Source: Candidatus Wolfebacteria bacterium GW2011_GWE2_44_13
Lineage (GTDB): Bacteria; Patescibacteriota; Minisyncoccia; UBA6257; UBA9933
Direction: 5' to 3'
Assembly (NCBI GenBank): GCA_001000675.1
Contig: LCHW01000003.1
Span: 3,873 to 67,872, forward strand
Length of the DNA stretch: 64,000 bases
Part shown: piece after piece, positions 4,655 through 31,089 of the stretch
Layout: each line of letters begins with the position of its first letter
How positions within the stretch are numbered: position 1 is the stretch's first letter
Notes under the pieces: generated by a model
Database searches by the model: none
Seen by the model: only the letters and a program-made list of their open reading frames with translations
Told to the model about the DNA's origin: nothing
Translations under genes and position numbers: made by a program

Positions 4655-5644
4655 TTATCTCGTGGAGCAATCCCAATGAGGTGCTGCAGGGGGCTTTTCT
4701 GACGAACACGTCACGCCCGTAACTTTATCACGAAAGGTTGCATAACTATCGCTACGCGTCGCTATTCTCTCAAATCTCTGCGGATTATTTACAAAAGCTA
4801 TCTCAACTCCAGGAGAAACTCTCATATCCCACTTATATCCTTCTGCGTGCGGTGTCCCTGGATCGTGCGCCTCTGTTACCGAAGTAATATTAATCGGCAC
4901 TCCCGCATCCGCCATTGATACAATTCCATCAAGCGTTATTTGCTTTACTCCTTGAAAGGATATGCACCCGACAGTACCCCCACCAGGAACACACTCTTTG
5001 AGCATTGCAATACCCCCAATTGACTCTAATCTGCTCCGGATATGCGATACCGGAGTGTCTGCAAGTGGTCTCCCGGCGTAAGCACCGTCACCAACAACAA
5101 CTGGCGTACTTGTTGAGTCTCCTGGCAACTCCATACCAACGGGTATATAGGGCGTTGCATTTATTTTTACCTTTGGCTGGAGTGCATTTTGGATACGCTC
5201 CACATCGACAATATTTGGATTAATCGTATTAAACAATACCTGCGCACCGAATAAAAGCACAATGCCTTTTAATGCATTTTTTATATAATCGTTACTTGCT
5301 TTTATCTTTCCTGGATCTGCCGACATTGTACGCAATATTCCTCCGTACATAATTACTCCAACAGCAACAACACCCACTAAACCCATTAGGTATTGATATA
5401 CCAAAAATACCATGTCCGCCGGCCCCTTTGCACCTAATAACACATTCGGCAAAAAGCGCGGCGTATAAATAAGATCTGCAGCTGCCTGTGGCGTACCTGC
5501 CGTCGTCGTTGCAGCCTCTCCGATTGAAATCATTACACCACTTAAAAGCAAGCAGGCGACTACGATTATCGAGCCGTTTAAAAGTCCTGAGCTCATTCGC
5601 TTTGCCATATATTGTATTGTACTTAAAAGGATTCGCGTTTTCAT
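4655..5644 (-). CDS. Pilin-like (VirB2/TrbC-like two-helix) membrane protein with C-terminal putative M15-like zinc peptidase domain
   Basis: Long hydrophobic leader, then two hydrophobic helices (MVFLVYQYLMGLVGVVAVGVIMYGG ... GIVLLFGAQVLF) as in T4SS pilins. The C-terminal 190 aa carries HAEGYKWD (HxxGxxxD) and PHWD, resembling the peptidase M15 Zn-ligand pattern. Confidence 0.35.
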   Translation of the reverse strand: MKTRILLSTIQYMAKRMSSGLLNGSIIVVACLLLSGVMISIGEAATTTAGTPQAAADLIYTPRFLPNVLLGAKGPADMVFLVYQYLMGLVGVVAVGVIMYGGILRTMSADPGKIKASNDYIKNALKGIVLLFGAQVLFNTINPNIVDVERIQNALQPKVKINATPYIPVGMELPGDSTSTPVVVGDGAYAGRPLADTPVSHIRSRLESIGGIAMLKECVPGGGTVGCISFQGVKQITLDGIVSMADAGVPINITSVTEAHDPGTPHAEGYKWDMRVSPGVEIAFVNNPQRFERIATRSDSYATFRDKVTGVTCSSEKPPAAPHWDCSTR

Positions 5645-7062: not shown

Positions 7063-7325
7063 GGTTTTATAATCCTTCCGTTGCTATTTAGGAACTGGAT
7101 ACCGGCCTCTGCGCTCCGTGTGCCACCGCTAAAGCTAAGGCGACACGCGGTCGGCCATAGCCTTTGGCGGCGTGCGACCGGTATGACATCGTATTGTCAT
7201 CCCGTGCCACAATACGGGATCCAGTATTTTGCGTACAGGACTCTGGATTTCAGACATGCTTGCTAACATTCTGGAATGACAATGTGGGGAGTTTGGATGA
7301 CAATACAAGGCATTTTTGTTGTCGG
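7063..7325 (-). other. GC-rich highly structured intergenic element (candidate ncRNA or mRNA structure) inside the T4SS-like operon
   Basis: About 260 nt with visibly higher GC than its flanks. It has multiple hairpins: a 12-bp long-range pairing gtattgtcatcc/ggatgacaatac, cccgt..acggg, atccag..ctggat and the nested ggtcg-gcca..tggc..cgacc. The tgtcat/atgaca word recurs. Confidence 0.3.
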
Positions 7326-9077
7326 TTATTTGTTCTCTTCCGCCTGCTGCAACAACTGCTCTGGATCTGTTGTGATGATTCGATCTTCGAAATATGATGG
7401 GATTATTTTAATTGCAACATGCTTAAGCCCTACTAAAAATATTCCTTCTCCTACTCCCGCAGACAACACTAAGCTTTTTTCTGTTTCACTTAGCGCGAAT
7501 GTTTTTGCAAGCACTTCAATACTCGATGGAGCCTGCTTTAGTAATAATTGCAATGACGAGTTGGATACGATTGGCACTCCATAGGGAGAGTTCATGAAAT
7601 CGTCTACGTTCTGTGTAATCGTTGTCATGCCCAAATAGTATTTTCTGCATCGCTTCGCGAGACCAAACAAGAACGAGGCACTGTCGGGATGCTTCATCAA
7701 TACCCATGCTTCGTCAATAATAAGAATGCGCTTTTTCATTTCAGCGCGAATCAAATTCCATATATAGCTCAACATCATGTACATAGCGATTGGACGCAGC
7801 TCCTCTTCAAGATCGCGTGTCGAGAAAATAACAAGCCTATTTTTAATGTCTACATTCGTTTGTCTATTTGCAAATCCCGCATACGTCCCTTGCGTAAATT
7901 TGTATAGCTTTGCCGCCATACTCTTTCCTCCTTCCATGTTTTCTAACACAGTTTGCAAATCGCTCAATAAAGGCGCTTCCAGCCCGGTAAAATCTTTTAC
8001 ATCACTTGTAATACCTCGTGATGCATATGTTTCGTTGATTGCGCGATCCATGAGCGCGTCTTCTTCTGGCGTTAGTACTCCCATCATCAGCTTTAATAAA
8101 CCAACAACATTTAAAATGTGTGATCGAAAAACGTCTGCAGGATCTTCCCCTACCGGCACAACAGGAATGTCGAGTGGATTTATGGCTGTATCAGATGTTA
8201 GCGAAATTTTTAACAAACTTCCTCCAACCGCGTCTGAAAGTTTTTCATATTCATTCTCTGGATCGATAACAATCACGTCGATGCCCATCATTAATGAACG
8301 CAATATTTCCAACTTTGTTCCGTACGATTTTCCAGCTCCCGACTTTGCGAACACTACCTGGTTTGCATTTTCTAATGAAAAGCGATCGAAGATGATTAAC
8401 GAATTATTGTGCTGGTTGATGCCATAAAGCACACCCTTGTCTGATGTAAGATCTTCTGAAACAAACGGAAATAGTGACGATATTGGACTCGTGTTTAGCG
8501 CGGTATGAATTTGCAACTTGTCCTGTCCAATCGGTAGCGTTGAAATAAATCCTTCGATGTGCTGGAAAATAGATGGCTTTAAATATACCATCTGACTATC
8601 AAGGATCGACGTAATTCTATCTTCTGCGCGCGAGAGTTCCGCTACTGAATTTGCATATACGGTTATATACACGCCAACGTCAAAGAGCTTCTCTTCCGCC
8701 TGTTGTAGCTGGTCGCGAAGCGCTTCTATATCTTGATATGCGGTTTCCAATGCTGGGTCTCGTACAAGGCCTTTTTCATCGCGCTCTGAAAGCTGCGCCT
8801 CAACTTGCGATACCTTTCTTCGTAGCTTACTTAGCGCGGCCGTTGTTTCAACGGGATGCACAAAAATAGAAACGTCTAATAAATTCGGAAGATTGATAAT
8901 AACGTCAAACCATCCTGTGGAAAGATACCGTGGGTACGTAAAAATAAATAACGTTTTTACATAGGTATCTCCCAGTCGTATAAAATTAGGATTTGCTTCA
9001 AGCGCAGCCGGGGCAATGACGTTTTTTACATCTTCCCCTCCGCCTGTATATGCTTGTGGTACGGTTATTTTTTCCAT
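7326..9077 (-). CDS. VirB4/TrbE/CagE-family type IV secretion ATPase (ATPase domain)
   Basis: Walker A SGAGKSYG, DPENEY, Walker B ILIIDEAWVLM. The architecture is typical of VirB4. Confidence 0.75.
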   Translation of the reverse strand: MEKITVPQAYTGGGEDVKNVIAPAALEANPNFIRLGDTYVKTLFIFTYPRYLSTGWFDVIINLPNLLDVSIFVHPVETTAALSKLRRKVSQVEAQLSERDEKGLVRDPALETAYQDIEALRDQLQQAEEKLFDVGVYITVYANSVAELSRAEDRITSILDSQMVYLKPSIFQHIEGFISTLPIGQDKLQIHTALNTSPISSLFPFVSEDLTSDKGVLYGINQHNNSLIIFDRFSLENANQVVFAKSGAGKSYGTKLEILRSLMMGIDVIVIDPENEYEKLSDAVGGSLLKISLTSDTAINPLDIPVVPVGEDPADVFRSHILNVVGLLKLMMGVLTPEEDALMDRAINETYASRGITSDVKDFTGLEAPLLSDLQTVLENMEGGKSMAAKLYKFTQGTYAGFANRQTNVDIKNRLVIFSTRDLEEELRPIAMYMMLSYIWNLIRAEMKKRILIIDEAWVLMKHPDSASFLFGLAKRCRKYYLGMTTITQNVDDFMNSPYGVPIVSNSSLQLLLKQAPSSIEVLAKTFALSETEKSLVLSAGVGEGIFLVGLKHVAIKIIPSYFEDRIITTDPEQLLQQAEENK

Positions 9078-9086
9078 AATAGTTAC

Positions 9087-9752
9087 TTATTGCTTCTTCG
9101 CTATTCCAATTCCCTTCTTTTCTGTTTCAGCTGGATTGTACAAATTATAGAACAGTTCGATGAGCTCTTCGTCATTTAGTGCCACCGCACGCAACCCAAT
9201 ACTCGCAAGCCCTGAGGCAATGTTATCGGCGCGCTGGTTGAGTTGCTCAATTGCTTCATCGAGCGATTTATCCTCCTGCGCTGTGGGTGTCGTATTTGTC
9301 TTTTTCCCAAAAAATGGCAGCCCCGATAATAGCCCTCCCGCGCTCGGCAGCACAACCCTGTCGTAGGGAACGACAACGAAAAACGATTTACCCATAATTT
9401 CACTCTGTTCAACGAACGATTTTATAAATTCTGAATATTCGCTTATTTGTTCGCGTAATAAATCGTTTGTTTCTGTTTCTTTTCGCTTGCTTAATCCATC
9501 GAGATATCCCTGAATATTTAATCGTCGTGAATGCACAATTATCTGTAATGTAAAGTCGAGCGAATTGATAAATTCTTGATATGCGCTAAGAATAATGTTT
9601 TTATCCTCCTCTGATTTCAACGCAAAATTGATCCCACTCACAAGAAGGATTTTTCTTAACGAACCACCTTTCAAAAGGACTGTCCCGTTATATACTCGCT
9701 CTACATCCACAAATTGTTGCGTTGCTTGTGCTTCTTGCGCCATAGGTATCAT
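9087..9752 (-). CDS. VirB4-family N-terminal domain, encoded as a separate ORF in the same frame as the ATPase ORF
   Basis: The VLLKGGSLRKILLVSGINFALKSEEDKNIILSAYQEFINSLDFTLQIIVHSRR pattern matches the VirB4/TraC N-terminal region. Its stop TAA (9087-9089) is followed by 9 nt and then the ATG of the ATPase ORF in the same reading frame. Confidence 0.5.
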   Translation of the reverse strand: MIPMAQEAQATQQFVDVERVYNGTVLLKGGSLRKILLVSGINFALKSEEDKNIILSAYQEFINSLDFTLQIIVHSRRLNIQGYLDGLSKRKETETNDLLREQISEYSEFIKSFVEQSEIMGKSFFVVVPYDRVVLPSAGGLLSGLPFFGKKTNTTPTAQEDKSLDEAIEQLNQRADNIASGLASIGLRAVALNDEELIELFYNLYNPAETEKKGIGIAKKQ

Positions 9753-9838: not shown

Positions 9839-10375
9839 TTATCTAAAATCGACTCGTTTTGCAGTTGCTTGGTCTCCTGTCTGTCTTCGGAAAATACTTA
9901 CCTTTTCTGTATCAACAACGGGCACTCCTTTTTCTCGTTGCGGTATAGGATTTTTCGATGTTGTAAGATCTCCTGATAATTTATTAATTGATGGCATTTG
10001 TGCGGTGAATTTTTTAAGCGTATTCCGTTGATCCACGATGTGCTCTTCTGATACTGGCATTTGTGGAAATTCGGGAACCTCTATCGTCCTCTCTTGCGCT
10101 TCGCGCTTCCAGAGATACAAACGTGGTTTCCAAAAAAATCCAAGGGCAGCAAAGGCTATACGTGGCAACGGTTGTCCATTAACTTTTACCAGCGCAAGTG
10201 CAAGCGCACCTCCCAGCGCAACAAGCCCAATAAGTAATGCGGCAAAAAATGGCAGGAGCGTAAACGCCAAAAAAGTAACTATTCCACCCCCTACGACATA
10301 CAATAATTGTCGTAACGAGAACGGTCCAGCTATTTTATCCTCCATTTCAATGAATTGCGGGATTTGGAATTGCAT
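9839..10375 (-). CDS. Small two-TM membrane protein, VirB3-like by position
   Basis: 178 aa with two adjacent hydrophobic helices. It sits immediately upstream of the VirB4 ORFs, which is the conserved VirB3-VirB4 order. Confidence 0.35.
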   Translation of the reverse strand: MQFQIPQFIEMEDKIAGPFSLRQLLYVVGGGIVTFLAFTLLPFFAALLIGLVALGGALALALVKVNGQPLPRIAFAALGFFWKPRLYLWKREAQERTIEVPEFPQMPVSEEHIVDQRNTLKKFTAQMPSINKLSGDLTTSKNPIPQREKGVPVVDTEKVSIFRRQTGDQATAKRVDFR

Positions 10376-10415: not shown

Positions 10416-11714
10416 TTATTTCTTATCGTCTACTCGTTCTAAAATTCGTAAATCAATAACATCGCCACTTACCGGTATCTCAGCTAATCGTGGCTCTTTT
10501 TCTGCAGTGGCTTGCGCCGTCATTGAAGGTTCGCCTCGCTGCGGCGTTTTCATAACTTCTCCTAGTGGTATCTGTGGCGACACGACAGGCGCGACAGCTG
10601 GTTGCATAGGAGTAGTAACTGACTGTTGCATATCCTGTATACTATTGGCAGATTTTTGCTCAAAGTTTACCTCGTGTTCTTGCTTTGTTACGGGCGCAAA
10701 TGCCGTAGCTTGCCGTTGTTCCTGTGCTTGTTCTCTTGCGCTGCTTTGTAGTGTTTCTATCGGCCTTACTTCCTCTGTTTTTTGTTCAGATGCTGGTTGC
10801 TCGTCATGGGCCATTAAGTCAACCATCTTGGGCTCAAAATTAACCTCGTGTTCTTGCTTTGTTACGGGCGCAAATGCCGTAGCTTGCCGTTGTTCCTGTG
10901 CTTGCTGCCCAAAGATATCTTCGGTCGCCTTTGCGGCTGTATAATGCACAACGCGCGGTGCTTGCTGCTCGGTTCTTGCAACATCCCCTGCTTTGCGCTG
11001 GAGCCCTTCTGCCATACTTACTTGCGCCGTAATTGCAGCTCCTCCATTTTCTACTCCCTTTTCCTTTCCAAAGCCAAACATTCCTCCAAACGAACTAAAT
11101 GACCTCCCTTTTCGAGAAACCGTTTTTAGCTCTGTCTCCGAGTGAATCATTGTCGGCGCCGCAATCCCCTCTTCTTGTATTTGATCTTTAGGCGCTTCCG
11201 CTATCACAGCTGCAGACGCATCTTCACCGTCCTGTATTTTTATCTTTCGCACATCAAATTGCGTAGACTCTTTTGTTGTCATTACTGCAGGTTCACCCAG
11301 CTCTGCTGGTGTATATAATTCTCCGCTCGCTTTTGCACGCTCTCTAATTTCAACACTTGTTTCTTCGATAATCCGCGGACCACTTCCAGATACTGTTCTG
11401 TACAATTTTAATATATCCCCTCTAACCGGATCGAATATTCTATGATCAACTTGAAAAATAATCGCATCCGCGGCCTTCTTATCGATACCAGGAATTGACT
11501 GCAATTCTGCCGAAAAATCATTGATGTGCGTAAAGCCGAGCACGATATTCCCTACTACGTTTGCAACATTCTTTATGATGTCCTTGGGCAATCCAGCTTC
11601 TTCGCAGACATTCGAAATAGCCTCTCCGTTTTCGAATGAGAAAAAGGCTTCTCGCAAGCTCTCTGGCGTTGCTTCCCATCGGTCATAAATTTGTTCTTTC
11701 GTAATTATTTGCAT
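10416..11714 (-). CDS. Hypothetical protein with internal tandem repeat
   Basis: 432 aa. The 25-aa unit EQAQEQRQATAFAPVTKQEHEVNFE occurs twice. Confidence 0.45.
   Translation of the reverse strand: MQIITKEQIYDRWEATPESLREAFFSFENGEAISNVCEEAGLPKDIIKNVANVVGNIVLGFTHINDFSAELQSIPGIDKKAADAIIFQVDHRIFDPVRGDILKLYRTVSGSGPRIIEETSVEIRERAKASGELYTPAELGEPAVMTTKESTQFDVRKIKIQDGEDASAAVIAEAPKDQIQEEGIAAPTMIHSETELKTVSRKGRSFSSFGGMFGFGKEKGVENGGAAITAQVSMAEGLQRKAGDVARTEQQAPRVVHYTAAKATEDIFGQQAQEQRQATAFAPVTKQEHEVNFEPKMVDLMAHDEQPASEQKTEEVRPIETLQSSAREQAQEQRQATAFAPVTKQEHEVNFEQKSANSIQDMQQSVTTPMQPAVAPVVSPQIPLGEVMKTPQRGEPSMTAQATAEKEPRLAEIPVSGDVIDLRILERVDDKK
10663..10907 (-). repeat. Intragenic direct repeat (two copies of about 65 bp, identical)
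   Basis: aacctcgtgttcttgctttgttacgggcgcaaatgccgtagcttgccgttgttcctgtgcttg at about 10663 and about 10843. Confidence 0.8.
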
Positions 11715-11760: not shown

Positions 11761-13863
11761 TTACGCACCACTTTCGAATAATCGACTTGCCATACTGTTT
11801 TCGAATGACTTATTGCGATTGATCATTTTTTTATAATCATGCGCCTTAAGTCTCTCCATCGTCATTGCATTTGCATTCTTTTTTATGGCCTCGTACGCTT
11901 CTTTCATATCCATCCCTTCAATATTCTCTACCCCTGAAGCAACAGACACTTCTTTCAACAATGCCATAGCTTCCTTTTGTGATTCCTCGTGCACGGCTCT
12001 TATTTCACTCGCAAACTTTGCCATCTTTTCTTTGTCTTTCATCTTTCCCGCGACTTTCGCAATTGCGCCAGGGAATTCCGCTACCATGCGCTTACGCGCC
12101 TCTTGTGCAAACTCAGAATCTCCGGTATATGCCGATTCTGGCATATCCGCATAATCCTTAGCCGAAGTGAAGCCTTCGTAGAACTTTGTCATCGCTTCGT
12201 CCAACTCTCTCTGTGCTGCTTCTACCTCTGCTGAAGTTGTCGCCCCTGCTGGCATATTAGCTATCGCAGCCTTCTTTGCTTTCGATGCCTTCACCATAGC
12301 AGCACTCTTTCCGGCTGCCTTTTCCATCTTCCCGTGTGCCTTTCCATCTCCGTACTGGGCAAATGCTGGACCCATTGTCTCGATATCTCGCTCAAGTACT
12401 GTTTCGTTAATCTTGTCCACCTTATTAGCCTTCACAAGTCGATCCATGGCAAATACCTTTTCATCCCTACTCATCGTCGAGTAGCGCAATGCCAAATCAT
12501 CATCGGACATTTTCCCAAAGCTCTCATCAAATGCTTTCTTTACCGCTGCTTTCTGACCTTCTGAAATTGCGCCTCCTGCACGACCCAGCTTTCCAGCGGC
12601 CCAGCCCTTTACTCCGCCTTCTCCTTCCATCTTACGCAATCTTTCTGCTCTGTCTGCCAGGCCTACTTTACTACTAAGAGCCGTTACTCCTCGATTCTTT
12701 AAACGCAATGATTCTCTTCGTCCATACGCGGCTGTTCCAGCGGCAGCGCCAACTGCAGCTCCTCTTGCACCTTTACCCCATCCTTGAATCTTTCCTTGAC
12801 CCCATCCGGTCATCGATCCCATCATATCCTTCCCTCCTTTTGCTCCGGAAATACTAATACTGTTTGCGGCAATTAATGACATAATCATCAACATAACAGC
12901 TATTACCATTTGGATAATCGCGCCAGTCATCGATGGCGCGAGCCCATCACCAAAAACAGCTGCTGCCGTTCCTACTGCAGGAGCTTCTTCATTTCCCTTT
13001 AACGCGCTCAACGATGTGAGCGAAAGCCACATGAAAAATATCATAACCGGAGGGAACATGGTCCAACGCACAAAGTCATTCCACCATTTATCCCAGTGCT
13101 TTTTTGTACCTGGGAATATCCACGCGACAAAAATGATCGGGGTTAACGTCAATAAAAACGTGAGGATAAAGAACCGTACAAACATCATCGCTGCGATTGT
13201 AAGCATAATAACCGATGCAATGAGCGTAAATATAACGACAAATGCTCCGCTTATTAAAATCATCAGCATCGCAGTCCCGAACTTATCCATTGCTCCTTGA
13301 CCCCCGACACCCGAAGTACTTAATAAGCCCGATATGTCAAACGCAGACGCAAGCGCTGATGAAATATTATCGCCCGTTAAGCCAGATTGATTCGCAAAAA
13401 ACTCAGTGGCCATACCCGACATATCTAAAAATACGCCAGGGATTACTAAGCTAAAGTTTACCAACAACGCAATAACGATTAACCGTGGCAATGCCTTTTG
13501 CATGCCATAGGTTTGCGAATTCAGCATTGTTGCAAATGCAATAATGATTAATGCGACAACGAGTGCAAGGTCGGCAACGTTTACAAATACTGTCCATCCA
13601 TTAAACAAGAACGCATTTGATTCTGGATCGAGAATATTATTATTGAGCCGCATTGCCACTTCGATCATCCATCCACCCGCCATAAATATCTTTTGCGCGA
13701 GTGCGGTAAGCAATGTAAGCAATACTAAGACGAGCTTCGTGACTACATTTGTTGAAAGTGACGTAAGGTCAAAAAATCCCGCGTGCGCCTTGGTTGTAAG
13801 CGCAAATTCAAAAAGCACAGCAAGTAACCCAACCGAAATAAATTTTTTATAGATTGATTGCAT
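11761..13863 (-). CDS. VirB6/TrbL-like polytopic inner-membrane protein
   Basis: 700 aa, signal peptide, more than 8 TM helices in the N-terminal 350 aa, G/A/K-rich and coiled C-terminal half. The topology is typical of T4SS VirB6/TrbL. Confidence 0.55.
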   Translation of the reverse strand: MQSIYKKFISVGLLAVLFEFALTTKAHAGFFDLTSLSTNVVTKLVLVLLTLLTALAQKIFMAGGWMIEVAMRLNNNILDPESNAFLFNGWTVFVNVADLALVVALIIIAFATMLNSQTYGMQKALPRLIVIALLVNFSLVIPGVFLDMSGMATEFFANQSGLTGDNISSALASAFDISGLLSTSGVGGQGAMDKFGTAMLMILISGAFVVIFTLIASVIMLTIAAMMFVRFFILTFLLTLTPIIFVAWIFPGTKKHWDKWWNDFVRWTMFPPVMIFFMWLSLTSLSALKGNEEAPAVGTAAAVFGDGLAPSMTGAIIQMVIAVMLMIMSLIAANSISISGAKGGKDMMGSMTGWGQGKIQGWGKGARGAAVGAAAGTAAYGRRESLRLKNRGVTALSSKVGLADRAERLRKMEGEGGVKGWAAGKLGRAGGAISEGQKAAVKKAFDESFGKMSDDDLALRYSTMSRDEKVFAMDRLVKANKVDKINETVLERDIETMGPAFAQYGDGKAHGKMEKAAGKSAAMVKASKAKKAAIANMPAGATTSAEVEAAQRELDEAMTKFYEGFTSAKDYADMPESAYTGDSEFAQEARKRMVAEFPGAIAKVAGKMKDKEKMAKFASEIRAVHEESQKEAMALLKEVSVASGVENIEGMDMKEAYEAIKKNANAMTMERLKAHDYKKMINRNKSFENSMASRLFESGA

Positions 13864-15448: not shown

Positions 15449-16267
15449 TTATAATCCTACTTCGGCGTACATTTTCACTAACGACTTTTGTAATGTGTCT
15501 GAATTTTTTATAAAGTCTGGTAATACCTGTGTCGCTAGTAGTCCTTTTAGCGGATCATTATAGCAATTTGCAATCGAGTTAAAAATTATATTCCCTTTCC
15601 GATAATGTGTGATTATTTGTCGATGGAATTCAGCCCACTGAGACGGCACCTGTATGCGAATAACGTCGTCTGCAGTTTCAGTATATGTCGTAGCCATTTC
15701 TCTCCCAACACCGCTTTCCTTCCCTGCACACGCGCGCTCGATTAGTCCTTGCACTCCTCCTTCTACGTTTTCGTAGCTCTTCTTGGCTGGGTGTCGCGCT
15801 AGCGCAGCTTCTAAATCACTGAGGTATCTTTTTTTTGCATCTTGCGTGTTATTTGCAATTATTTTTAGGTCCTTATCGGTTACCGAGATTGTCGCAAATA
15901 GCGATTCAGTCGATGTATCTACTGAGCGAGTAATTGAGCTCTGCACTGCAAATGAATTTGCAGTATCTTCGTCAAAGGGATTTTTCCCTTCCTGGTCAAG
16001 CTGCTTCATTTGCTCAAAAGTTGCGAGGGCAACGCTTTCTGTTACATTATTTTTATCCCCCTCCTTCTCACTCGTAACCGCTGCAAGCCAATCTGTTGAG
16101 ACTCCTATATCTTCGAGAAATCCGGATGCAGAAGAACCATCTAATGATGGTTGTGATTTTTCATTTACTTGCTGTTGACTATCCTCTCCTCGATTGACTA
16201 CGGCATACGATCCAAATAACACAATCGCAATTGCCGCAAATATAATTGCCATTCGATTTCTCTGCAT
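15449..16267 (-). CDS. Hypothetical membrane-anchored protein
   Basis: 272 aa with N-terminal TM. It is the first gene of the minus-strand cluster, with a possible TTGCGG-17-TATACT promoter just upstream. Confidence 0.45.
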   Translation of the reverse strand: MQRNRMAIIFAAIAIVLFGSYAVVNRGEDSQQQVNEKSQPSLDGSSASGFLEDIGVSTDWLAAVTSEKEGDKNNVTESVALATFEQMKQLDQEGKNPFDEDTANSFAVQSSITRSVDTSTESLFATISVTDKDLKIIANNTQDAKKRYLSDLEAALARHPAKKSYENVEGGVQGLIERACAGKESGVGREMATTYTETADDVIRIQVPSQWAEFHRQIITHYRKGNIIFNSIANCYNDPLKGLLATQVLPDFIKNSDTLQKSLVKMYAEVGL

Positions 16268-16313: not shown

Positions 16314-17864
16314 TCACTCTCCTTGTCCAGTCATCGTTGAATAATACGTGGGTATATACTGATTAAAATAATTGTTCATAAGTGGCATCATTAAGCGCTC
16401 TACGGGAGCATGGTTATCTTTTAATAAAACTCCCTTGCTGGCGACAATACTATCGTCAATAAGCAGCTTCGATAAAAATTCTCCATTTTCTCCCCGTGCT
16501 ATTTTTTCTCGTATCTCTTGTATATTTATCGCGTTATTTGTGTTTACCCCTACAAGAACAATATTTTGCGGCGCATATTCACTTTCCCCATATGCAAACA
16601 TTACATATTGGCTAAAGGTTTCTCTAAATGTTTTCCCTATACTCTCAAAAAGTCCGGCATTTTCTCCTGCTCGTGCTGAAATAAAATTTACTGCGTATAA
16701 ACCATTTTCATTTAAATGATTTTTCACCTCTTCATTAAACTCCCTTGTTGTCATATGCCATGGCACAGAAACAAACGAGTTATACGCATCAGAAAATATG
16801 AGGTCGTATTTTTTATCCGTTCGCTGTAAAAAAACTCGCCCATCGGCAACTTCAGTCTGCATTGGGTATTCTCTTAATTTAAAATAGTCTTCTGCGACCT
16901 GCTGTACTTTTGGGTCGATTTCTACGGTTGTCACATTTGCATCTTTATATGCGGAGACGATTTTTTTCGAAAGCGTGTACGATCCTCCTCCTATCACAAG
17001 AACATCTTTCATCGAACTCCCCATTGCAGAAAATATCGGGTATATATCGGGGTAAAGATTAAGCTTCTGCCCTTCCAGGCCTTCTACACTATGCGAATCG
17101 GCGTCTAAAAATAATGTTCGCACCTTGCCGTTTTTCTCGGTACTACTGTCTACTACTTGAATCTTATAATACTCACTTTCCGCAGCGAACACTTTTCCCC
17201 GCACATCGGTGAATAAATGCATTACGTATGTCACCACCCCTACGCATAAAAACAGTACTGCGATCCATGCTAATCGTTTTTTAGATGTATACAGGATAGC
17301 TGCATTTATTAATAGCACTATAGCAATTAGTAGTATCGTGGCAGAGCTCCCTACATATCCGATAAAATAAAAGCCGGCAAGAAATGTACCGACAATACTC
17401 CCTAGTGACCATGTAGCTGATATTTGTCCTGATTTAATGCCCGTTGTTTCCGTTGTTTTAAGATGAAGCTTTAAAATACTCGGGTATAGTGTTCCGAAAA
17501 GTACCGCTGGCACAAAAAATAGTACTAATGCTAATAATAATGTTGTTATCGAAATAGGTAATCCCAAAAGCGCAACTACTGGGGAAAAATACGCCCCCAA
17601 TGGTATTAAGAATGTCACTATCGAGGTTATCGCAAATAATAACGAGAGCTCTTTTCTCGATCCATATTTATCCGCATATATACCACCTCCATAGTTTCCG
17701 ATTGCCATGCCGAACAACACGACACCAATAACTGACGTCCATGTGTAAATTGATGACCCTACGTATGGCGCCATAATACGCGTCGCGATTAGCTCGATAA
17801 CCATCAAGGCAAATCCTGCGATAAAAGCCGACCCGATTAATATATTGCGATCATTTTTTATCAT
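16314..17864 (-). CDS. speE: Polyamine aminopropyltransferase (spermidine synthase) fused to an N-terminal multi-TM domain
   Basis: The C-terminal domain has VLVIGGGSYTLSKKIV ... VEIDPKV ... DLIFSDAYNS. The N-terminal 200 aa has multiple TM helices. Confidence 0.7.
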   Translation of the reverse strand: MIKNDRNILIGSAFIAGFALMVIELIATRIMAPYVGSSIYTWTSVIGVVLFGMAIGNYGGGIYADKYGSRKELSLLFAITSIVTFLIPLGAYFSPVVALLGLPISITTLLLALVLFFVPAVLFGTLYPSILKLHLKTTETTGIKSGQISATWSLGSIVGTFLAGFYFIGYVGSSATILLIAIVLLINAAILYTSKKRLAWIAVLFLCVGVVTYVMHLFTDVRGKVFAAESEYYKIQVVDSSTEKNGKVRTLFLDADSHSVEGLEGQKLNLYPDIYPIFSAMGSSMKDVLVIGGGSYTLSKKIVSAYKDANVTTVEIDPKVQQVAEDYFKLREYPMQTEVADGRVFLQRTDKKYDLIFSDAYNSFVSVPWHMTTREFNEEVKNHLNENGLYAVNFISARAGENAGLFESIGKTFRETFSQYVMFAYGESEYAPQNIVLVGVNTNNAINIQEIREKIARGENGEFLSKLLIDDSIVASKGVLLKDNHAPVERLMMPLMNNYFNQYIPTYYSTMTGQGE

Positions 17865-18735
17865 ATTTTTTCATCAAAATAACTATCTCTTCCATGGACA
17901 AATCTTGGGGTCGCTTTCGCTCATCAATGCCAATTTCGTTCAATATTTTTATTACCCGCTCTTTACCCTCTTCTTTCCCTGTGAGATTATTCGCAATTGT
18001 TTTGCGGGGTTGGGTGAATAATTTTTTTATAAACGTATAATATTTTTTACTATCTTCTTCTGTTGGCTGCACATCCAGTCGAATTGTGGCACTGTCTACC
18101 TTCGGAGGCGGGTTAAAATCCTTCTTCGGAACGCTTTCTACGATATCCGGATTTGCCCAAAATTGCACACTCGCGGCAAGCAAATTCATCTGTGGAGCTT
18201 TTGCGCAAATACGCTCGGCAACTTCTTTTTGAATTGTCATTACTACTCGTGTTGGTTTCTGTTCTAACTCTTCGATAACACGCAACAAGTACCCTGTTAT
18301 ATAATATGGAATATTCCCCGCTATTTTATAAGAGGGCATCTCTGTTTGGCGATCTACTGCGTTGCCTTCTCGTTTTCTCCCTCGAGGTAGCATTACTACA
18401 TCTCGGTCGCAAGCCTCGCCGGCGCCTTGTATCTCATCCAAACATACACGCCCCTCGCTTAATGCGTTTACTATAATAGGAAGTGTTTCCAGTGCGTTTC
18501 CTCCAATGACTGTAAATTTCTCTTTTGCAAACTTTTTTCGTAATGCAGGAATGAGCTGTGTATCACGTTCTAATGCAATAATCTGTGCGCCTGCATCTAA
18601 TAAATACTGCGTCAGCTCACCGTGCCCAGGACCAACTTCAATCACAATGTCGCGCTTGCGAATACCAAGTGCCTTTGCTACGTTTTCCAGCTTCTCGTTA
18701 TTGATTAAAAAATGTTGCCCTAATCGCTGACCCAT
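17851..18735 (-). CDS. rsmA: 16S rRNA (adenine1518/1519-N6)-dimethyltransferase
   Basis: MGQRLGQHFLINNEKL ... IEVGPGHGELT ... AGNIPYYITG. It has a central insertion of about 40 aa. Confidence 0.85.
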   Translation of the reverse strand: MGQRLGQHFLINNEKLENVAKALGIRKRDIVIEVGPGHGELTQYLLDAGAQIIALERDTQLIPALRKKFAKEKFTVIGGNALETLPIIVNALSEGRVCLDEIQGAGEACDRDVVMLPRGRKREGNAVDRQTEMPSYKIAGNIPYYITGYLLRVIEELEQKPTRVVMTIQKEVAERICAKAPQMNLLAASVQFWANPDIVESVPKKDFNPPPKVDSATIRLDVQPTEEDSKKYYTFIKKLFTQPRKTIANNLTGKEEGKERVIKILNEIGIDERKRPQDLSMEEIVILMKKYDKK

Positions 18736-30988: not shown

Positions 30989-31089
30989 AAATCGAGTACC
31001 GTATTATGGTACCCGAAAACGCAGGAAATGCAAGATTACTGATACTGGATTCCCGCCTGCGCGGGAATGACAGTGCAAGAGCCTGGATC

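Follow-up and report, generated by a model that had tools for sequence, protein, structure and literature searches.

Organization of the locus

Two ORFs on the minus strand of the window, the 64,000-nt stretch of DNA analysed here from a Candidatus Wolfebacteria genome, encode the parts of a VirB4 protein. The upstream ORF of 221 codons ends in ...GIAKKQ and a TAA stop codon; the downstream ORF of 583 codons (7326-9077) opens at an ATG with the protein sequence MEKITVPQ.... The minus-strand sequence bears out two points of the preliminary description: both ORFs lie in one frame with a TAA and 9 nt between them, hence 12 nt between the coding parts, and their combined length is about 808 aa (221+1+3+583 = 808 codons). 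In the public annotation the upstream gene opens at the second ATG, which yields a 218-aa product.

The virB4 gene is located within a type IV secretion system (T4SS) gene cluster that includes a VirB3-like partner. The gene for this partner, of the PrgI family, occupies the same position in the loci L083-L088. Two further genes of the cluster have syntenic counterparts in L088, where the 700-aa protein corresponds to one of 714 aa and the 329-aa protein to a pilin-domain protein of 328 aa. The 700-aa protein has no Pfam or NCBIfam match in the scans of this analysis. The 329-aa protein matches the NCBIfam Mbov_0395 pilin-like family (E 1.5e-6). The ksgA gene is found near the cluster (17851-18735), and no relaxase is encoded among the genes scanned beside virB4 (about 240-30400 of the window). 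A copy of a palindromic element, TGTCATYCC...GGAATGACA, is present at 7195-7281. It was considered as a functional RNA and rejected, as this copy folds no better than shuffled sequences (z -1.36). The count of the motif, 3 against 0.72 expected, was reached by 5 of 100 shuffles and is only suggestive.

Table 1. Features of the virB4 region (window coordinates).
Feature	Position	Strand	Description and evidence
T4SS pilin-like domain gene	4655..5644	-	329 aa; Pfam T4SS_pilin E 9.4e-6, 26.1 bits, just below cut-off of 26.6
virB4, 3′ part	7326..8477	-	P-loop ATPase domain and stop codon; Pfam/NCBIfam profiles, Walker motifs, structure matches
virB4, 5′ part	8478..9077	-	Second half of VirB4 N-terminal domain; ~residues 1-200 of 583-aa protein, boundary approximate
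Junction	9075..9089	-	TAA 9087-9089; 9-nt spacer GTAACTATT 9078-9086; virB4 ATG 9075-9077
trsD-like gene	9087..9752	-	Free-standing first half of VirB4 N-terminal domain, 221 aa
PrgI-family (VirB3-like) gene	9839..10375	-	Small membrane protein; directly upstream; Pfam PrgI E 4.2e-9, 37.3 bits, above cut-off of 27
Possible VirB6/TrbL-like channel component gene	11761..13863	-	700 aa; weak precomputed PF19590 TrbL_3 match

The two proteins

The 583-aa protein is a VirB4/TraC/CagE-type T4SS ATPase by profile, Walker motifs, predicted fold and gene context. Pfam P-loop_TraG (76.6 bits), AAA_10 and DUF87 match residues 235-540, each above its own cut-off, and NCBIfam conju_CD1110 is matched with 381.5 bits (cut-off 325) over profile positions 183-733 of 752. 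Positions 239-736 of TIGR00929 map to the same ORF. The Walker A (AKSGAGKS) and Walker B (ILIIDEAW) motifs are both intact in the translation, and the Walker residues G468, G470, K471, S472, D676 and E677 are invariant across the 60 sequences of alignment A1. Moreover, the homologue P0003 matches structure 4AG5 by sequence. The initial reading of this ORF as the ATPase domain holds insofar as that domain is present, but the first ~200 residues belong to the second half of the VirB4 N-terminal domain. Positions 278-373 of Pfam TraC_F_IV are found at residues 84-183 of the protein, and in the AF2 model of the concatenated chain N-terminal-domain elements are seen at residues 247-401. A complete N-terminal domain is absent from this polypeptide, its first ~210 residues being encoded by the separate upstream gene.

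The 221-aa protein matches NCBIfam TrsD/TraD (NF041427) with an E-value of 2.7e-10, and its score of 40.4 bits is below the curated cut-off of 200. In BLASTP, residues 9-206 align with residues 32-216 of the 227-aa TraD/TrsD of a Staphylococcus aureus plasmid (E 8e-8). By sequence comparison the protein is a significant but distant relative of TrsD/TraD. More than 120 of its homologues likewise stand alone, at 208-226 aa. It also aligns with full-length VirB4 models (TIGR00929 positions 4-186, CD1110 1-105, VirB4_plasma 102-233), Pfam TraC_F_IV positions 126-175 fall in its ORF, and it shares 54% identity with the N-terminal part of P0007, the single-chain orthologue in L088. These matches support the resemblance to the VirB4/TraC N-terminal domain noticed at the outset; it is confined to the first half of that domain. 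The trsD-like gene is co-oriented with virB4 and directly upstream of it, with the 9-nt spacer between them, and L081 and L090 show the same arrangement.

Position of the break

Both pieces are colinear with full-length VirB4 profile models. A model of the two proteins was calculated with AF2 (pLDDT 77.7) as one artificially joined chain, and is hence no test of the interaction between the chains. Foldseek matched it to full-length TrwK (8rtd_O) with a TM-score of 0.67 and an E-value of 8.7e-28, and to the C-terminal domain of 4AG5 with a TMt of 0.76. The joined pieces are thus predicted to adopt the VirB4 fold, consisting of the N-terminal domain and a RecA-like C-terminal domain. Two folded subdomains flank a linker of low pLDDT (residues 214-234), and the junction is located within this linker. 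In single-chain orthologues, the corresponding site is short and variable and is flanked by the conserved motifs ELFYNLYNP and IAPxAxE. The VirB4 N-terminal domain is broken midway, in a flexible linker, and not where it meets the ATPase domain; this answers the earlier question of whether the junction falls at a domain boundary.

In the AF2 model, residues 17-205 and 247-401 show the same order of secondary-structure elements. An internal duplication of the N-terminal domain was considered and rejected: hhalign comparison of the two sub-alignments gave a probability of 0.12% (E 0.49).

The split in related genomes

In all 70 loci in which both pieces were found (from Wolfebacteria, Harrisonbacteria, Saccharibacteria and Microgenomates, with one Streptomyces replicon), they are encoded by separate, adjacent ORFs. 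The spacers range from -20 nt (overlap) to +552 nt, with each of the three possible relative frames represented. No more than 17 of the 70 pairs are in frame where chance alone would give one third, so that the shared frame of the two ORFs is a 1-in-3 coincidence without function. The closest homologues of the ATPase protein (70-92% identity) are all ~580 aa long, and every relative at 65% identity or above (65-92%) is split. In the three closest, L001-L003 (90-92% identity), palindromic inserts of 82-119 nt separate the genes. Although the spacers are unrelated, these loci keep the MEKIT(V/L)P start and a stop that follows ...IAK(K)Q. L001 carries a TAATAA double stop, and in L020 and L042 a complete 23S_rRNA_IVP gene sits between the halves.

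Comparison of the window with L001-L003 gave dN values of 0.15-0.17 for the trsD-like gene and 0.055-0.073 for virB4, with dS saturated. Because of this saturation, dN/dS was determined for the pair L002/L003, with values of 0.020 and 0.030 respectively. Purifying selection acts strongly on both halves. The two-gene form, a TrsD-like piece followed by the ATPase core, is normal and conserved in Patescibacteria and was already known. The natural split into two subunits that the preliminary description listed among its options is thereby confirmed for this clade, where the homologues are consistently two separate genes, ~790-aa single chains being found in sister Parcubacteria. The description had itself named separately encoded homologues as evidence against an interruption, and its wording of an interrupted VirB4 is misleading.

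Alternative explanations

The TAA could result from a recent nonsense mutation that inactivated a single-chain virB4 and left a decaying pseudogene. The in-frame arrangement of the ORFs, with so few nucleotides between them, would agree with this, as would the single-chain orthologues of sister Parcubacteria, which show the same synteny. Yet the split is common to all the 65-92% relatives and extends to Saccharibacteria and Microgenomates, the protein ends on both sides of the junction are kept in L001-L003, and both halves are conserved although synonymous sites are saturated. Since the split is conserved clade-wide and dN/dS is ~0.02-0.03 in both halves, we regard a recent nonsense mutation as excluded for practical purposes. 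A false stop codon introduced by sequencing or assembly, an a priori possibility in any metagenome assembly, has just as little to recommend it. The junction CAATAAGTAACTATTATG recurs unchanged in five contigs (ENA ERZ28564412, ERZ909587/SRR1658471, JGI 3300000815, Logan SRR29904088 and SRR446576) that stem from different samples and assemblers and match the window at 99.9-100% identity, and the homologues are split as well. These five independent assemblies exclude such an error with near certainty.

Programmed readthrough or reassignment of TAA would produce an 808-aa VirB4, perhaps beside the two separate products. A single stop codon between ORFs in one frame is what this predicts, and the single-chain orthologues are evidently functional. 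However, in-frame pairs show no enrichment in related loci, and the nearest relatives have the ORFs in frames +1 and +2, or carry double or further in-frame stops (L001, L010). Genes inserted between the halves at some loci also argue against readthrough, and a stimulatory structure would not fit into the 9-nt spacer. A TAA with G as the next base is not known to be a leaky termination context. Moreover, TAA is not reassigned, being the ordinary stop of 33 of the 41 genes of the window. The free variation of frame and spacer from relative to relative makes programmed readthrough very improbable; we likewise give only a very small chance to a leaky in-frame TAA that in this strain also yields some single-chain VirB4.

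Proposed two-chain VirB4

At this locus a chromosomal Patescibacteria T4SS (Candidatus Wolfebacteria-type) very probably has two real genes that are translated separately and whose chains would rebuild one VirB4. The TrsD-like protein would correspond to a canonical VirB4 over its first ~210 residues, and the VirB4 core would contribute the second half of the N-terminal domain and the P-loop ATPase domain. We infer that the two chains associate non-covalently to form the complete N-terminal domain. In the R388 structure, VirB4 dimerises through this domain (residues 15-400 of TrwK), around which VirB3 is wrapped (PMC9259494). The VirB3-like partner here would be the PrgI homologue encoded just upstream, and a hexamer of the ATPase would power the secretion apparatus. 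The 9-nt spacer may permit coupling of termination and reinitiation. Only ~4 of the 41 genes of the window carry a Shine-Dalgarno motif, which makes this motif uninformative as a test for an independent ribosome-binding site. The proper annotation is a trsD-like gene and virB4, neither a pseudogene nor a recoding site. As a general point, two neighbouring ORFs that share a frame offer weak evidence for an interrupted gene until the relatives have been compared.

Fused and split forms are interleaved in NJ trees whose backbone is weak (39-45/100 at key Parcubacteria nodes), with monophyly of the fused forms recovered in 0 of 100 bootstraps. The outgroups are mixed, both split (TrsE, Streptomyces) and single-chain (PrgJ-like). 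This interleaving of ~790-aa fused forms with split ones indicates that fusion or fission has happened several times at one linker. We lean, with some reserve, towards the view that TrsD is the first subdomain of the VirB4 N-terminal domain in detached form, and that the boundary between trsD and virB4 has been crossed repeatedly in evolution. The coexistence of both architectures and the position of the break in a flexible linker support such a role. If true, this would give TrsD a concrete function. The coexistence of single-chain and two-chain orthologues in neighbouring lineages is of modest interest for the biology of Patescibacteria T4SSs.

Comparison with known systems

In staphylococcal plasmids of the pGO1/pSK41 type (MPF_FATA), as here, a gene for a ~220-aa TrsD/TraD lies directly upstream of that for the VirB4-type ATPase TrsE/TraE. 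An annotated trsD and virB4 pair is likewise present in Lactiplantibacillus plantarum, and the genes of the Streptomyces replicon are split too. The spacers are 20 nt between staphylococcal TrsD and TrsE and 11 nt between trsD and a DUF87 virB4 in Lactiplantibacillus plasmids. Staphylococcal TrsD aligns end to end with the 221-aa protein and shares its terminal FYxLY motif; TrsE aligns with the ATPase protein from TrsE residue 31 onwards (E 9e-36). The break point is thus homologous to that between TrsD and TrsE, and VirB4s of the TrsE type equally lack a complete N-terminal domain on the same polypeptide. The systems differ in that identity is only 21-24%, TrsE is ~90 aa longer, and the cluster described here is chromosomal, in a Patescibacteria genome, and includes a pilin-domain gene.

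Epibiotic growth in Patescibacteria reportedly requires the T4SS. According to the part of Quinonero-Coronel et al. (2025, PMC12102498) considered here, TrsD homologues beside virB4 rank first in abundance among the T4SS components of Patescibacteria, and the one of Ca. Southlakia epibionticum ML1 is essential. TrsD is described there as remotely homologous to the N-terminus of VirB4, with 'no function assigned'. The arrangement in that part of the paper is the same as ours, a chromosomal cluster of PrgI/VirB3-like, TrsD-like, VirB4 and pilin-like genes with ksgA nearby, and its TrsD-VirB4 organization shows no material difference; the ~790-aa single-chain orthologues are not mentioned in it.

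Finally, single-chain VirB4s (R388 TrwK, the Enterococcus faecalis PrgJ/CD1110 family and the ~790-aa Parcubacteria proteins) are colinear with the joined pieces, are predicted to share their fold, and show the same gene context with PrgI directly upstream. They differ from the system described here, in which the first ~210 residues form a separate polypeptide and the break lies inside the N-terminal domain.

Layout of the two ORFs and location of the break

Sequence and translation confirm the two-ORF layout of the preliminary description: the 221-aa ORF (N piece, trsD-like) and the 583-aa ORF (C piece, virB4) lie in a common frame with a joint span of 808 codons. The longer ORF had been taken for the ATPase domain. 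It does carry this domain, with intact Walker A (AKSGAGKS) and Walker B (ILIIDEAW) motifs, and scores above the curated NCBIfam threshold for VirB4-like conjugal ATPases of the CD1110 type (381.5 against 325 bits), but it also includes part of the N-terminal domain. Pfam TraC_F_IV (VirB4/TraC N-terminal region) matches the N piece with profile positions 126-175 and the C piece with 278-373; for TIGR00929 VirB4_CagE these positions are 4-186 and 239-736. Since each profile matches both ORFs, the junction, which was to be compared with domain boundaries, is located inside the VirB4 N-terminal domain (residues 15-400 in R388 TrwK, PMC9259494). The N piece matches NF041427, the model for TrsD/TraD proteins (E 2.7e-10, far under the curated cut-off), and the N-terminal part of several models that cover the whole of VirB4.

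Features of the trsD-like/virB4 locus and of related loci
Feature	Location	Strand	Remarks
trsD-like ORF (221 aa)	9087-9752	-	ends ...GIAKKQ, TAA at 9087-9089
Spacer GTAACTATT, 9 nt	9078-9086	-	between TAA and ATG
virB4 ORF (583 aa)	7326-9077	-	opens MEKITVPQ..., ATG at 9075-9077
PrgI	9839-10375	-	matching neighbourhood
Pilin-domain protein	4655-5644		matching neighbourhood
RrnaAD/KsgA	17851-18735		matching neighbourhood
Palindromic element	L001:3911-3985		between trsD and virB4
Palindromic element	L002:3897-3985		between trsD and virB4
Palindromic element	L003:3918-4002		between trsD and virB4
23S_rRNA_IVP gene	L020:3600-3980		between the halves
23S_rRNA_IVP gene	L042:3436-3846		between the halves

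The split is conserved among relatives

In a search with the concatenated protein, the C piece had close homologues at 70-92% identity, many of them labelled Candidatus Wolfebacteria, and all were about 580 aa long; remoter homologues from Parcubacteria (54-61% identity) were single chains of about 775-810 aa. The N piece gave at least 120 matches, and all those listed were stand-alone proteins (208-226 aa, 54-100% identity); P0121, from an uncultured bacterium (ACD_81C00066G0003), is identical to it from the second ATG on. Among 80 genomic loci fetched with the C piece, 70 contained both pieces, in every case as separate neighbouring ORFs, which bears out the earlier suggestion of a natural split into two subunits.

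The two pieces share a frame in 17 of these 70 loci, not above the one third expected by chance, and their common frame in the window is coincidental. Across the 21 loci that resemble the window most, the distance between the pieces goes from a 20-nt overlap up to a 427-nt spacer. The three relatives L001, L002 and L003 (92, 91 and 90% identity) have spacers of 96 nt, 119 nt (frame +2) and 82 nt (frame +1); the 96-nt spacer opens on another in-frame stop (TAATAA). Although the spacers are unrelated, the C piece still starts MEKIT(V/L)P and the N piece still ends ...IAK(K)Q-stop. Such junctions are consistent with two independently translated genes, and fit neither readthrough nor a recent lesion.

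The L001-L003 spacers are palindromic inserts of 82-119 nt with ends TGTCATYCC...GGAATGACA. The element resembles a REP/MITE-like intergenic repeat. A similar pair of ends is present at 7195-7281 of the window, just downstream of virB4, with a further site at 31064-31072; the fold z-score of the window copy is only -1.36, and the motif count is 3 against 0.72 expected. In one Harrisonbacteria and one Saccharimonadales genome (L020 and L042), a whole 23S_rRNA_IVP gene (PF05635, E 3.7e-37 and 3e-11), with a short repeated sequence on its flanks, separates the halves.

The single TAA between ORFs in one frame had also been read as a recent nonsense mutation, a sequencing error or a programmed readthrough site. 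The first reading, a pseudogene, is highly improbable given a clade-wide split kept in 70/70 loci and strong purifying selection on both genes, as judged from substitution rates: dN/dS is 0.020 (N) and 0.030 (C) for L002/L003, the less diverged pair. Comparison of the window with L001-L003 shows saturation at synonymous sites, while dN is only 0.15-0.17 (N) and 0.055-0.073 (C). An error at the TAA deserves next to no credence: 14 contigs encode exactly the N-piece protein, and the five examined, which come from separate samples and assemblers, match the window at 99.9-100% identity and have the same CAATAAGTAACTATTATG junction. Readthrough is just as hard to credit, with frame and spacer varying among relatives, a second stop in L001, and inserts or whole genes in spacers.

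TAA is a normal stop here, as it ends 33 of the 41 window genes. A Shine-Dalgarno motif at a suitable distance precedes only about 4 of the 41, so its absence is uninformative here. Upstream of the 41 starts the sequence is rich in A and T, and TATAAT-like strings often lie near the start codon; this suggests that initiation in this genome is SD-independent or uses short leaders. The gene at 15449-16267 and virB4 share the upstream context aactattATG. The 9-nt spacer would permit termination-reinitiation coupling.

In six Gracilibacteria/Peribacteria loci (L022-L025, L029, L034), tblastn upstream of virB4 detected no N-piece homologue, in agreement with TrsD lacking association to VirB4 in Gracilibacteria, as remarked in PMC12102498. 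The virB4 frame is open 51-271 codons upstream in these loci; some of these lineages probably read TGA as a sense codon.

Structural model of the joined pieces

An AF2 model (m6f7c55f4cc6b) of the concatenated pieces, aligned with 59 single-chain orthologues, had a mean pLDDT of 77.7 and a pTM of 0.67. The junction (221|222) falls in a low-confidence segment (residues 214-234) flanked by two well-predicted alpha/beta subdomains (~17-205 and ~247-401). Its counterpart in the single-chain orthologues is a short, variable segment bounded by two conserved motifs, ELFYNLYNP and IAPxAxE. The model has structural matches in full-length TrwK/VirB4 of the R388 T4SS (8rtd_O; E 8.7e-28, TM 0.67, ~860 columns) and in the C-terminal domain of T. 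pseudethanolicus VirB4. R388 VirB4 dimerises through its N-terminal domain, and VirB3 wraps around this domain (PMC9259494). The TrsD-like chain would supply the first N-terminal subdomain in trans, associating with the VirB4 core and the VirB3-like PrgI anchor encoded just upstream; the VirB4 ATPase would drive the secretion apparatus.

The two subdomains (window ~9138-9704 and ~8541-9002) share the modelled secondary-structure order EEE-H-E-HH-E-H-E-H. An ancient tandem duplication could account for this, but profile-profile comparison gave no sequence similarity (hhalign probability 0.12%).

Split and fused forms in evolution

P0007 (L088:2501-4882) is encoded by one true ORF, in a gene order shared with the window: a 714-aa gene, a 194-aa gene, PrgI, VirB4, 165-aa and 221-aa genes and a pilin-domain gene. 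The single-chain orthologues P0003-P0117 (~790 aa), from sister Parcubacteria, share this synteny. NJ trees built on the C-piece region show wholly split Microgenomates, Saccharibacteria and Wolfebacteria-type clades (bootstrap 96, 100 and 74). The single-chain forms all belong to one group of Parcubacteria, where ten split loci lie among them, and are monophyletic in 0/100 bootstraps. These trees, with a weak backbone (39-45/100), suggest that fusion or fission has recurred at one linker. The Met seen at the junction of several fused proteins (A-MGKTITD) could be left over from a start codon.

Comparison with known systems

On an S. aureus pSK41/pGO1-like plasmid, traD/trsD (227 aa) lies 20 nt upstream of traE/trsE (670 aa). 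The N piece aligns with TrsD end to end (residues 9-206 against 32-216, E 8e-8), with the same FYxLY motif at the end, and the C piece with TrsE from residue 31 on (E 9e-36); the break point is therefore homologous. A Lactiplantibacillus plasmid also has an annotated trsD and DUF87-virB4 pair, and the top hit in the plasmid database, on a Streptomyces replicon (35% identity), is split too, with its pieces in different frames. In an E. faecalis plasmid, one 796-aa VirB4 comes after PrgI. In NF042935 (actinobacterial SCO6880 family, 477 positions; L082), positions 238-291 match the end of the N piece and 363-477 the start of the C piece. The model appears to correspond to a VirB4 N-terminal domain alone, hinting at another natural break point (N-terminal domain/ATPase) in some Actinobacteria.

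Between the VirB6-like gene and prgI, the 432-aa protein at 10416-11714 (-) had no family match. It contains a long internal direct repeat, with EQAQEQRQATAFAPVTKQEHEVNFE present twice and a 73-nt repeat of 97% identity. An otherwise near-identical assembly (L083:1969-2328) differs here by ~100 nt and has another gene call (71 aa), which could reflect repeat-length variation or assembly collapse.

Quinonero-Coronel et al. 2025 (PMC12102498) regard TrsD as remotely homologous to the VirB4 N-terminus, with no function assigned. According to them, no T4SS component was recovered more often in Patescibacteria (2,272 homologues, 1,664 adjoining virB4), and the TrsD homologue of Ca. Southlakia epibionticum ML1 is listed as essential. 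The neighbourhood reported there, with PrgI/VirB3-like proteins, VirB2-like pilins, ksgA nearby and usually no relaxase, is matched by that of the window. The locus is thus an ordinary, conserved and already described trsD-like/virB4 arrangement of Patescibacteria T4SS clusters.
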